Shown here: piece after piece, positions 18,679 to 21,908 of the stretch
How the letters are laid out: each line of letters starts with the position of its first letter
Numbering within the stretch: position 1 is the first letter of the stretch
Notes under the pieces: generated by a model
What the model was told of the DNA's origin: nothing
What the model saw: the letters and a program-made list of their open reading frames with translations, nothing else
Databases searched by the model: none
Position numbers and translations under genes: made by a program
Origin: Escherichia phage BYEP01
DNA: 64,000 nucleotides
Sequence record: OR757453.1
Reading direction: 5' to 3' (one strand)

Positions 18679-18708
18679 GTTTACTTTTCCTCTTGACTGT
18701 GGTATAAT
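18679..18708 (+). promoter_or_regulatory. early promoter
   Basis: gtttac..tgtggtataat. Confidence 0.6.
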
Positions 18709-19204: not shown

Positions 19205-19750
19205 ATGAGAAAAGCACTACTCGCTGGTCTATTGGCCATTTCTATGATGGCACATAGCTCCGAGCATACTTTCAGTAATGTCCAACTCGATAACATGCGT
19301 TACGCGTATCAATTCGGGGAACAATTTTCTAAGGATGGAAAATATAAAACACATAAAAATATCCACAAAAGCGGATTAGGTCATATAATGGCTGCTATTT
19401 TATGGCAAGAAAGCTCTGCCGGAGTTAATTTAAAATCTAAACCAAAGCATCATGCCTATGGAATGTTCCAAAATTATTTGCCGACAATGCGAGCAAGAGT
19501 TAAGGAACTTGGTTATAATATGACCGATGCTGAAATAAAAAGAATGTTGAATAAACGATCCAATTCAGCTTCCTGGGCGTACATTGAACTTTCTTATTGG
19601 TTAAATATACATAAGGGCGATATAAAAAAGGCAATATCCTCTTATAATTCGGGATGGAATGTTAAAGCAGGTTCTAAATATGCTTCTGAAGTCCTAGAAA
19701 AGGCTAACTACCTTAAAAATAATAAACTTTTGGAAATAGTAAATGACTAA
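19205..19750 (+). CDS. secreted protein (Vs.1-like), signal peptide
   Basis: N-terminal signal sequence MRKALLAGLLAISMMAHS. Confidence 0.55.
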   Translation: MRKALLAGLLAISMMAHSSEHTFSNVQLDNMRYAYQFGEQFSKDGKYKTHKNIHKSGLGHIMAAILWQESSAGVNLKSKPKHHAYGMFQNYLPTMRARVKELGYNMTDAEIKRMLNKRSNSASWAYIELSYWLNIHKGDIKKAISSYNSGWNVKAGSKYASEVLEKANYLKNNKLLEIVND

Positions 19751-20090
19751 AATTTTGGTTTTATGTATAGGATTAATTTCATTTTCTGCTTCTGCGTCAG
19801 CAGATACATCATATACTGAAATTAGAGAATATGTAAATCGCACTGCGGCAGATTATTGTGGGAAAAATAAAGCATGCCAAGCTGAATTTGCGCAGAAATT
19901 AATATATGCATATAAAGACGGAGAAAGAGATAAATCAAGCAGATACAAAAACGATACATTATTAAAACGATATGCTAAAAAGTGGAATACTTTAGAATGT
20001 TCAGTTGCGGAGGAGAAAGATAAAGCCGCTTGTCATTCAATGGTTGACCGTTTGGTAGATTCTTATAATCGAGGATTGAGTACTAGATGA
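19743..20090 (+). CDS. vs: Vs, valyl-tRNA synthetase modifier-like (115 aa)
   Basis: 115 aa, position next to regB; N-terminal signal-like segment. Confidence 0.6.
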   Translation: MTKILVLCIGLISFSASASADTSYTEIREYVNRTAADYCGKNKACQAEFAQKLIYAYKDGERDKSSRYKNDTLLKRYAKKWNTLECSVAEEKDKAACHSMVDRLVDSYNRGLSTR

Positions 20091-20554
20091 TTGTAAAATA
20101 TATCAAGGGCGATATTGTCGCCCTTTTCGCTGAAGGTAAAAATATTGCGCATGGATGCAATTGTTTTCATACTATGGGTTCAGGAGTAGCGGGTCAATTA
20201 ACCAAAGCTTTCCCTAAAATTTTGGAAGCTGATAAATTACAGACTGAATGGGGTGATGTAACTAAACTCGGTTCTTACTCAGTCTATGAAAAATACTTTA
20301 GGACTCATAAAGCGTATTGCTTCAACCTTTATACTCAATTTCAACCAGGGCCAAATTTTGAGTATTCCGCTTTAATGAATTGTATGTTAGAATTAAATGA
20401 GTTTGGTGAAAATAAACTGATTAAACCTACAATCTATATGCCTAGGATTGGTGCAGGCATAGGTAAAGGGAACTGGGATATTATTGAGGGGATTTTAGAT
20501 ACATATTCCTCTAAATTAGAAATTGTGATTGTTGATTGGGAACCATTATTATGA
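20087..20554 (+). CDS. macro domain protein (putative ADP-ribose binding/hydrolysing)
   Basis: Motif GDIVALFAEGKNIAHGCNCFHTMGSGVAGQL typical of macro domains. Confidence 0.6.
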   Translation: MIVKYIKGDIVALFAEGKNIAHGCNCFHTMGSGVAGQLTKAFPKILEADKLQTEWGDVTKLGSYSVYEKYFRTHKAYCFNLYTQFQPGPNFEYSALMNCMLELNEFGENKLIKPTIYMPRIGAGIGKGNWDIIEGILDTYSSKLEIVIVDWEPLL

Positions 20555-20763
20555 ATATACATTATCCACATCCATATGACCCAAAGAATAAGGCAGTAAT
20601 TATTCGTCAATGGGAACGCATTTGCCGTACTAAATGCCCAATTAATAGTCCACATGACGTAGATAAAGACTACATTGGAACATTCGTTGAATATACCTTT
20701 ATTGATAAGAAAGGTCGTAAACAGCATGTAGAAGAATACTGCTTAAAGGTGACATGGTTATGA
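20551..20763 (+). CDS. hypothetical protein (70 aa)
   Basis: ATGA overlap. Confidence 0.45.
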   Translation: MNIHYPHPYDPKNKAVIIRQWERICRTKCPINSPHDVDKDYIGTFVEYTFIDKKGRKQHVEEYCLKVTWL

Positions 20764-20969
20764 GCCAAACTAGTATTCTTAAAAATGCCCACTGTGAAAA
20801 GTGTAAATGGCCGGTTGTTTTTGCTTTATGCAACGATGAAATGGCTTGTGATTTCGATTATTGGTGCTATTGTTCTAATAAAGGATGCATCAATCATAAA
20901 GGTGAAGGATTTTATTCGGGATTTTATCCTTATCCAGATTTCGTTAAGAAGGTAAACCGAAATGAATAG
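20754..20969 (+). CDS. cysteine-rich small protein (putative Zn-binding)
   Basis: CEKCKW...CNDEMACDFDYWCYCSNKGC. Confidence 0.5.
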   Translation: MVMSQTSILKNAHCEKCKWPVVFALCNDEMACDFDYWCYCSNKGCINHKGEGFYSGFYPYPDFVKKVNRNE

Positions 20970-21135
20970 TTCTGAGTTACAATATGAAGTGTTACGTGAA
21001 CTTGATAATTTAATTGAACTCGCTGTCAATAAAGGTTTTGCCATTGGAATCGGTCAAAAAGATACTGATCATTTAACTATGGAAATATTTAAGCAAAAGC
21101 GAATTATTTTAAAACTTCTGGAAATTAATATATGA
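20962..21135 (+). CDS. hypothetical small protein (57 aa), not in ORF track
   Basis: Read manually; ATGA overlaps on both ends. Confidence 0.4.
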   Translation: MNSSELQYEVLRELDNLIELAVNKGFAIGIGQKDTDHLTMEIFKQKRIILKLLEINI

Positions 21136-21317
21136 GCCTAAGCAAAGAACAAAAAGATAAATTGTTTGAGCTTATCCATGAACTTCTAGATGAGCATACA
21201 GAAGCAAACACCTTTTATGATGAATACGGCCCGCTATCTCCCGAACAGCAAGAAGAATTTGCTGATCGGTTTGATAAGAAAGAAAACGAATTAATAGCTT
21301 ATGTGAATATGCTTTAA
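21132..21317 (+). CDS. hypothetical protein (61 aa)
   Basis: ORF. Confidence 0.5.
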   Translation: MSLSKEQKDKLFELIHELLDEHTEANTFYDEYGPLSPEQQEEFADRFDKKENELIAYVNML

Positions 21318-21326
21318 GAAGGTGAT

Positions 21327-21908
21327 ATGGCGAGTTTAATTTTTACTTACGCAGCAATGAATGCTGGAAAATCTGCTTCTCTTTTGACTGCTGCGCATAA
21401 TTATAAAGAACGTGGAATGAGTGTATTAGTTCTTAAGCCTGCTATTGATACTCGCGATTCTGTCTGTGAAGTCGTTTCTCGCATTGGAATTAAGCAGGAA
21501 GCAAATATTATTACAGATGATATGGATATTTTCGAGTTCTATAAATGGGCTGAAGCACAAAAAGATATTCATTGCGTATTTGTAGATGAAGCCCAGTTTT
21601 TAAAAACTGAACAGGTGCATCAATTGAGCCGAATTGTTGATACATATAATGTTCCTGTTATGGCTTATGGATTAAGGACTGATTTCGCTGGAAAATTGTT
21701 TGAAGGTTCTAAAGAACTTTTGGCGATTGCAGATAAACTTATTGAACTAAAGGCAGTTTGTCATTGTGGTAAAAAAGCTATTATGACAGCTCGATTAATG
21801 GAAGATGGAACACCAGTTAAAGAAGGTAATCAAATCTGTATTGGTGATGAAATTTATGTTTCTTTGTGTAGAAAACATTGGAATGAATTAACTAAAAAGC
21901 TCGGTTAG
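21327..21908 (+). CDS. tk: thymidine kinase (193 aa)
   Basis: P-loop AMNAGKSASL; C-terminal Zn-binding CHCGKKA...C; 193 aa as in T4. Confidence 0.9.
   Translation: MASLIFTYAAMNAGKSASLLTAAHNYKERGMSVLVLKPAIDTRDSVCEVVSRIGIKQEANIITDDMDIFEFYKWAEAQKDIHCVFVDEAQFLKTEQVHQLSRIVDTYNVPVMAYGLRTDFAGKLFEGSKELLAIADKLIELKAVCHCGKKAIMTARLMEDGTPVKEGNQICIGDEIYVSLCRKHWNELTKKLG

Follow-up and report, generated by a model that had tools for sequence, protein, structure and literature searches.

Introduction

DarTG systems stop phages through ADP-ribosylation of DNA, and T-even phages devote adfA, adfN, and adfM to undoing or blocking this modification. T4 lacking both adfA and adfN was still resistant to DarTG2, from which an unknown further T-even anti-DarTG2 factor was concluded to exist (AdfN study, LeRoux lab, PMC11257639). 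When a T4 transposon library was screened by HIDEN-SEQ on a DarTG2 host, tk.4 was the single significant hit (bioRxiv 10.1101/2025.11.20.689424, November 2025). A clean tk.4 knockout sensitized T4 to DarTG2; the gene then received the new name adfM, and its product Tk.4 became AdfM (anti-DarT factor Macrodomain). In the words of the preprint, it "seems likely" that ADP-ribose is removed from the DNA (bioRxiv 10.1101/2025.11.20.689424). In this study, we analyzed a stretch of 64,000 nucleotides of Escherichia phage BYEP01 (sequence record OR757453.1), hereafter called the window, in which the open reading frame (ORF) at 20087–20554 is the ortholog of tk.4. We consider it probable, at roughly three in four, that this protein is a DarTG2 counter-defense macrodomain and most likely a glutamine-type (Gln-type) hydrolase of ADP-ribosylated DNA, the hydrolase step being deduced by comparison with characterized macrodomains.

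The closest described systems are partly cellular and partly phage-encoded. SCO6735 of Streptomyces (PDB 5E3B) efficiently hydrolyzes the linkage of ADP-ribose to thymidine in DNA and rescues cells when DarT is toxic to them; all of its activity is lost in the Q85A and Q85E variants, and in the proposed mechanism a water molecule is held by the Val25 backbone while Gln85 positions the distal ribose (PMC9411070). An extended mobile loop with Lys89 and Lys94, together with Lys34 in loop 1, was described as the hallmark of its subclass for DNA processivity (PMC9411070). DarG (PDB 5M31, 5M3E, 5M3I, 7OMU) is a two-domain protein of ~330–340 residues, in which K80A is inactivating, with N22A second in severity (PMC5179494). 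Human TARG1, also called OARD1 (PDB 4J5S), likewise cleaves thymidine-ADP-ribose on DNA (PMC8501950; PMC9411070). Finally, gp104 of phage PhiKZ resembles Tk.4 in consisting of a macrodomain alone and in counteracting DarTG2. In vitro, it removes ADP-ribose placed by DarT2 on the second T of TNTC (PMC13309987, Cell Rep 2026). The N23A substitution impairs this activity, and gp104 rescues DarT2 toxicity (PMC13309987).

Identity of the ORF with T4 tk.4

The initial annotation of this DNA, made from the letters alone, had delimited the ORF correctly to the base, i.e., an ATG-initiated frame of 155 codons and a stop. We compared its product with T4 and found 100% amino acid identity to T4 Tk.4 over all 155 residues (ORF 60.5 of X04567; the T4 record OZ209057 contains it as well). 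As in T4, the gene lies between vs and tk.3. By this identity and synteny, the ORF is the tk.4 (adfM) ortholog of a T4-like Tequatrovirus, and it differs from the T4 gene at the DNA level only, by six synonymous changes. The 3.3 kb around tk.4 matched hundreds of Tequatrovirus genomes at 95–99% identity. At the DNA level, the window is T4-like, with ~96–97% identity. We also asked whether the window could be T4 itself; this was ruled out by the flanks of tk.4, which show 96.7% and 95.1% identity to T4, and by a segment without alignment to it.

The initial annotation had proposed the protein as a candidate counter-defense enzyme. The complete identity to T4 Tk.4, taken together with the published knockout that became sensitive to DarTG2 (a check that the annotation had itself suggested), supports this proposal and would place BYEP01 among the DarTG2-resistant Tevenvirinae. 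The identity itself had been missed in that annotation, as had the difference in active site from DarG and TARG1. That tk.4 encodes an anti-DarTG2 macrodomain is already known and is not new here. The A1pp/macro assignment of tk.4 orthologues goes back to a 2006 publication (PMC1524935). Labels in public records vary among "macro domain protein", "phosphatase", "Poa1p-like", and "ADP-ribose binding module"; the label "phosphatase" stems from the A1pp domain name of 2006 and not from an assay.

Fold and class of the Tk.4 protein

With the Pfam Macro family (PF01661), for which the gathering cutoff is 22 bits, Tk.4 scored 27.7 bits at E = 2.9e-6 over profile positions 2–113 of 118; PHROG 335 matched with E = 1.3e-65. 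Using phmmer against PDB sequences, the first match was BT1257 of Bacteroides (PDB 2FG1, 2AFC; 1.3e-9), followed by yeast Poa1p (PDB 6LFQ–6LFU; 2.8e-6); SCO6735 was also matched, as were DarG and TARG1 (both ~5e-4). We built a profile from 67 Tk.4 homologues, and the same set provided the input alignment for AlphaFold2. Searched against the PDB, this profile returned BT1257 (5e-18), TARG1 (1.5e-15), DarG of Mycobacterium tuberculosis (Mtb; 1.4e-14), SCO6735 (5.8e-14), and Poa1p (1.4e-13); overall, the PDB matches now ranged from 5e-18 to 5e-12. The AlphaFold2 model reached a predicted local distance difference test score (pLDDT) of 95.8 and a predicted template modeling score (pTM) of 0.91. 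It has the three-layer α/β/α arrangement of a macro fold, and both the G31-S-G33 phosphate-binding loop after strand 2 and a glycine-rich loop 2, P119-R-I-G-A-G124, are present. The top ranks of Foldseek for the model were TARG1, BT1257, Poa1p, and DarG, with E-values from 5e-10 to 8e-8; TARG1 was the top match (E = 4.7e-10).

The macro-domain call of the initial annotation is thus upheld by Pfam, PHROG, PDB sequence matches, and the model; the profile and structure comparisons that it had proposed as a check (PF01661, AlphaFold2, Foldseek) found the fold. In both structure and sequence, the nearest neighbors were ALC1-like rather than of the MacroD, PARG, or macroH2A types. Therefore, Tk.4 is a single-domain ALC1-like macrodomain, of the class of TARG1, DarG, SCO6735, BT1257, and Poa1p.

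Within this class, membership in DarG or TARG1 was ruled out by score cutoff, architecture, and catalytic residues. DarG models were the only matches of Tk.4 in NCBIfam and PADLOC, and they covered only the macro half of the profile: the DarG equivalog NF048014 scored 30.3 bits against a cutoff of 250 (profile positions 2–146 of 338), and the PADLOC DarG model scored 36 bits, compared with 132.9 for PhiKZ gp104. Tk.4 lacks the C-terminal DarT-binding domain of DarG, and the DarG macrodomain is only ~19–23% identical to it, with K80 where Tk.4 has glutamine. The dyad K84/D125 of TARG1 corresponds to Q84/G126. No darT gene is adjacent to tk.4, the neighbors of which are vs and tk.3.

Equivalence of Tk.4 to the PhiKZ protein was likewise ruled out. 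Both are acidic, and N23 of gp104 corresponds to N25 of Tk.4; however, gp104 is a close relative of DarG (E = 9e-25 to Mtb DarG) and has kept the catalytic lysine of the FPTK motif, unlike Tk.4. The BLASTP comparison of the two was not significant (E = 4.2), whereas hhalign aligned the Tk.4 profile to the gp104 sequence with 96% probability at 19% identity. The name AdfM was given independently to two distinct macrodomains, i.e., T4 Tk.4, which is Gln-type and rests on genetic evidence, and PhiKZ gp104, which is Lys-type and rests on in vitro evidence. Transfer of annotation from one AdfM to the other would be misleading.

Active-site residues and proposed mode of action

Conservation was assessed in 119 retrieved Tk.4 homologues of 35–98% identity, and active-site columns were compared in HMMER and MAFFT alignments. 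Eight residues were invariant (119/119), namely Q84, Y82, G33, A35, P119, I121, G122, and G124. N25 and D49 were each found in 118 and H22 in 114 of the homologues. Q84 aligns to K84 of TARG1, to K80 of DarG (Taq and Mtb; FPTKKHW motif), and to the lysine of gp104, as well as to Q85 of SCO6735 and the corresponding glutamine of BT1257, which was the best match of Tk.4 by sequence and by structure. N25 aligns to N22 of DarG and N23 of gp104, and G126 stands at the position of TARG1 D125. The counterpart of loop 2 reads PRIGCGLAGGxW in SCO6735 and BT1257 and PPLGxGNGGLxW in DarG. The strand H22-G23-C24-N25 has the H-x-C-N pattern in common with SCO6735, with G23 at the position of Val25. The presence of Q84 in place of K80 indicates that lysine-based chemistry is closed to Tk.4, although the asparagine is kept.

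From these comparisons, DNA hydrolase activity with a Gln-type mechanism is most likely for Tk.4. The counter-defense role is further supported by the DarG models being the only NCBIfam and PADLOC matches of Tk.4 and by the precedent of PhiKZ gp104. Upon infection, thymidine in TNTC motifs of single-stranded DNA is ADP-ribosylated by DarT2, and phage replication is thereby blocked. We postulate that Tk.4 would bind ADP-ribose in the macro pocket and hydrolyze the bond between thymine N3 and ribose, restoring the DNA; that is, it would work like an orphan DarG macrodomain minus the C-terminal DarT-binding domain. The chemistry would be Gln-type and water-mediated, as proposed for SCO6735, rather than the lysine-nucleophile chemistry of DarG and TARG1. 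In such a scheme, the part of Q84 would be to orient the distal ribose, with the water held by a backbone carbonyl of the strand H22-G23-C24-N25. We favor water-mediated hydrolysis because Tk.4 shares both the H-x-C-N strand and the glutamine with SCO6735. If true, cleavage of the thymine–ribose bond by a Gln-type, acidic, short-loop protein on DNA containing glucosylated hydroxymethylcytosine (glucosyl-hmC) would extend the SCO6735 water-mediated mechanism. It would also show that the name AdfM covers two unrelated proteins.

Several points weigh against this proposal. In the literature, the text of the HIDEN-SEQ preprint included, we found neither a biochemical assay of T4 Tk.4 nor a catalytic mutant or a test of sufficiency, and the genetic result comes from one preprint and one DarTG2 system (bioRxiv 10.1101/2025.11.20.689424). 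The catalytic residues K84 and D125 of TARG1 are Q84 and G126 in Tk.4, and K80 of DarG is also replaced. The DNA-positioning Lys34 and Lys89 of SCO6735 and its extended mobile loop are absent from Tk.4. In addition, ALC1, a non-catalytic ADP-ribose reader, carries glutamine at the Q84 position, indicating that glutamine by itself is no proof of catalysis. Tk.4 is also mildly acidic, with an isoelectric point (pI) of 5.9; however, gp104 is active and at pI 5.05 more acidic still, and acidity alone is therefore no argument against DNA hydrolase activity.

In another reading, the protein neutralizes DarTG2 mainly without catalysis, by binding and inhibiting DarT2 or by shielding ADP-ribosylated sites on DNA. 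Inhibition of DarT in vitro persists in the dead Q85A variant of SCO6735, the closest characterized enzyme of the Gln type (PMC9411070), and ALC1, with the same glutamine, is a pure reader. In contrast, the isolated DarG macrodomain carrying K80A did not inhibit DarT, for which the C-terminal domain was needed (PMC5179494), and Tk.4 does not have that domain. The conservation of N25, Q84, G33, G122, and G124 fits an enzyme better than a protein that binds one particular partner, and gp104 of PhiKZ is catalytic. We consider a mainly non-catalytic role quite unlikely.

Tk.4 shares with SCO6735 and BT1257 the glutamine at the position of the catalytic lysine and differs from them in several other respects. 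The corresponding loop is ~5–6 residues longer in SCO6735 and BT1257 (QFQPGPNFEY in Tk.4 versus QHGMKTGSKGAPVRY), S32 of Tk.4 occupies the position of SCO6735 K34, and there is no lysine at the K89 position. The two are cell-encoded with pI values of 8.7–9.7, compared with 5.9 for phage-encoded Tk.4. The Asp49 column holds tyrosine in SCO6735, BT1257, both DarGs, and PhiKZ gp104, and leucine in TARG1. Tk.4 could represent a large, phage-restricted third ALC1-like active-site type, marked by Gln84, invariant Asp49, a short loop, and the absence of DNA-clamping lysines, which was recruited independently of PhiKZ AdfM and is possibly a broad ADP-ribose eraser instead of an enzyme dedicated to DarTG2. 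We regard this as unlikely. Besides DarT2-modified thymidine, the substrates of such an eraser may include protein- or RNA-linked ADP-ribose from other host defenses or from the phage transferases Alt, ModA, and ModB.

In another role, Tk.4 would primarily be an ADP-ribose-1''-phosphate (Appr-1''-p) phosphatase such as Poa1p, or another small-molecule ADP-ribose enzyme, that clears by-products of RNA repair; the DarTG2 phenotype would then be secondary. Among the active-site residues probed in Poa1p structures (H23, S30, and F152), H23 aligns to H22 of Tk.4 and S30 to T29, a variable position with threonine in 74 of the 119 homologues. Poa1p has serine instead of glutamine at the Q84 position and an insertion of 20–25 residues before loop 2, and T4 lacks the tRNA splicing in which Poa1p finds its substrate. 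Repair by T4 PNKP and Rnl1 yields ordinary 3'-5' junctions without a 2'-phosphate, so neither ADP-ribose-1'',2''-cyclic phosphate (Appr>p) nor Appr-1''-p arises as a substrate. No KptA/Tpt1 gene was seen near the tk.4 locus, and the phosphatase label is, as noted above, inherited from a domain name. The genetic phenotype toward DarTG2 is, by contrast, direct and specific (bioRxiv 10.1101/2025.11.20.689424). This role is very improbable.

The initial annotation had further suggested that the protein modulates the ADP-ribosyltransferases of the phage. Three such enzymes, Alt, ModA, and ModB, are encoded by T4-like phages (PMC9503650), and SCO6735 and TARG1 act on protein substrates too (PMC9411070); Tk.4 might thus erase or tune the marks of these transferases on proteins or RNAylated targets. 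We found no evidence in support of this suggestion. In the HIDEN-SEQ study, T4 did not need tk.4 on a plain K-12 host, and the gene scored in the DarTG2 condition only (bioRxiv 10.1101/2025.11.20.689424). The gene is not adjacent to alt or to modA/modB. Moreover, Alt, ModA, and ModB modify arginine, and macrodomains of the ALC1-like class are not known to cleave the arginine–ADP-ribose linkage. We give this suggestion slightly less credence than the phosphatase role. Least probable of all is the degradation of ADP-ribose-derived immune second messengers, e.g., glycocyclic ADP-ribose (gcADPR) or histidine-ADP-ribose (His-ADPR) of Thoeris: the nearest neighbors of Tk.4 in structure and sequence are all de-ADP-ribosylases of DNA or protein in the ALC1-like class, and no genetic evidence for such an activity was found.

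Distribution of Tk.4 homologues

Of 50,697 phage records searched with tblastn, 2,750 contained a Tk.4 homologue. The hosts of these phages include Escherichia, Klebsiella, Salmonella, Pseudomonas, Vibrio, Acinetobacter, Aeromonas, and others. Genes of the gp104 type were found in 276 phage records. In phage genomes, the Tk.4 type outnumbers the biochemically characterized PhiKZ-type AdfM about tenfold, yet it lacks the catalytic lysine of the DarG/TARG1 mechanism.

An origin of Tk.4 as an orphan antitoxin was also considered. None of three inspected homologue contexts, a small sample, contained darT, and all three were phage contigs; the idea was set aside. Two homologues had been assigned to bacterial metagenome-assembled genomes (MAGs), one to a Bacilli bacterium (GCA_051648945.1; contig L003, 1927–2397) and one to Culicoidibacterales (GCA_051660865.1; contig L004, 5001–5480). 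These contigs, of 40–44 kb, are full of T4-like genes, including those for Rnl1, PNKP, dCMP deaminase, the T4 spanin, and Phage_Y01A, and are probably phage contigs that were mis-binned into the MAGs. On L003, the macro gene lies two genes 3' of Rnl1 and directly 5' of a Dda/PIF1-like helicase. A longer homologue of 246 residues (P0087; contigs L005–L007, 5001–5741) carries an extra extension of ~90 residues. Its neighborhood is conserved on several metagenomic contigs and consists of unannotated genes, including a 1274-residue ORF and a protein with a cREC_REC domain.

Gene features, locus, and transcription

The features of the gene and its surroundings are collected in Table 1. The N-terminal peptide quoted in the initial annotation, GDIVALFAEGKNIAHGCNCFHTMGSGVAGQL, which contains loop 1, corresponds to residues 8–38 of Tk.4.

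Table 1. Positions of tk.4, its conserved codons, and its putative expression signals in the window
Feature	Position	Strand	Description
tk.4 / adfM coding sequence	20087..20554	+	ATG start, 155 residues and TGA stop; stand-alone macrodomain
ADP-ribose-binding loop 1	20150..20191	+	Residues 22–35, HGCNCFHTMGSGVA; H22, N25, and G31-x-G33 phosphate-binding motif
Asp49 codon	20231-20233	+	Family-specific conserved acidic residue
Y82-T83-Q84 codons	20330..20338	+	Q84 at the catalytic Lys position of TARG1 (K84) and DarG (K80) and at the essential Gln85 of SCO6735
Diphosphate-binding loop 2	20441..20476	+	Residues 119–130, PRIGAGIGKGNW; macro-fold loop, from alignment and conservation
Shine-Dalgarno sequence GAGGA	20071..20075	+	11 nt 5' of the tk.4 ATG, within the vs 3' end; read from sequence
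ATGA overlap, tk.4 start and vs stop	20087..20090	+	Read from sequence
ATGA overlap, tk.4 stop and tk.3 ATG	20551..20554	+	Same overlap in the T4 annotation; tk.3 directly 3'
Tentative sigma-70-type (early) promoter	18680..18708	+	5' of regB; TTTACT-17-TATAAT, extended TG, 10/12 consensus matches

A ribosome_binding_site is annotated in X04567 beneath the match to the GAGGA region. The overlap of the tk.4 start with the vs stop suggests translational coupling of the two genes. The gene order is regB, vs.1, vs, tk.4, tk.3, several small ORFs, and tk, and the intergenic gaps along this string range from -10 to +9 nt, indicating that its genes are probably co-transcribed. The promoter-like match 5' of regB was the only good one able to feed the string. 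In the AT-rich region, 18 sigma-70-like sites were found, compared with 18.0 expected from shuffled sequence; at this background frequency, the assignment of this promoter is tentative and weak. Strict and relaxed pattern searches for a MotA-box middle promoter 5' of tk.4 found none. Early expression of tk.4 from the regB–tk string is, therefore, a tentative reading of these signals. The preceding gene, vs (19743–20090), encodes the valyl-tRNA synthetase modifier; in the HIDEN-SEQ preprint, depletion in minimal medium was stronger for vs than for any other T4 gene (bioRxiv 10.1101/2025.11.20.689424). Together with the DarTG2 result for tk.4, two adjoining genes of the cluster now have conditional phenotypes.

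Within tk.4, codons 7–13 form a perfect GC-rich hairpin of 8–9 bp at 20105–20125 (AAGGGCGA-TATTG-TCGCCCTT), which the scanner flagged as a terminator-like site on the minus strand. As a regulatory element it was rejected, since the folding of the surrounding 81 nt was ordinary (z = -1.36, with 21 of 200 shuffles equal). It probably arose as a side effect of the conservation of the codons for KGDIVAL.

The segment that does not align to T4 (OZ209057) lies between tk.3 and tk, at 20764–21327, and looks like typical T-even mosaicism. Four small overlapping ORFs are present here (20551–20763, 20754–20969, 20962–21135, and 21132–21317), compared with three in T4 (tk.3, tk.2, and tk.1). The 71-residue product of the ORF at 20754–20969 is rich in cysteine (CEKC...CNDEMAC...CYCSNKGC), which is suggestive of a small zinc-binding protein.

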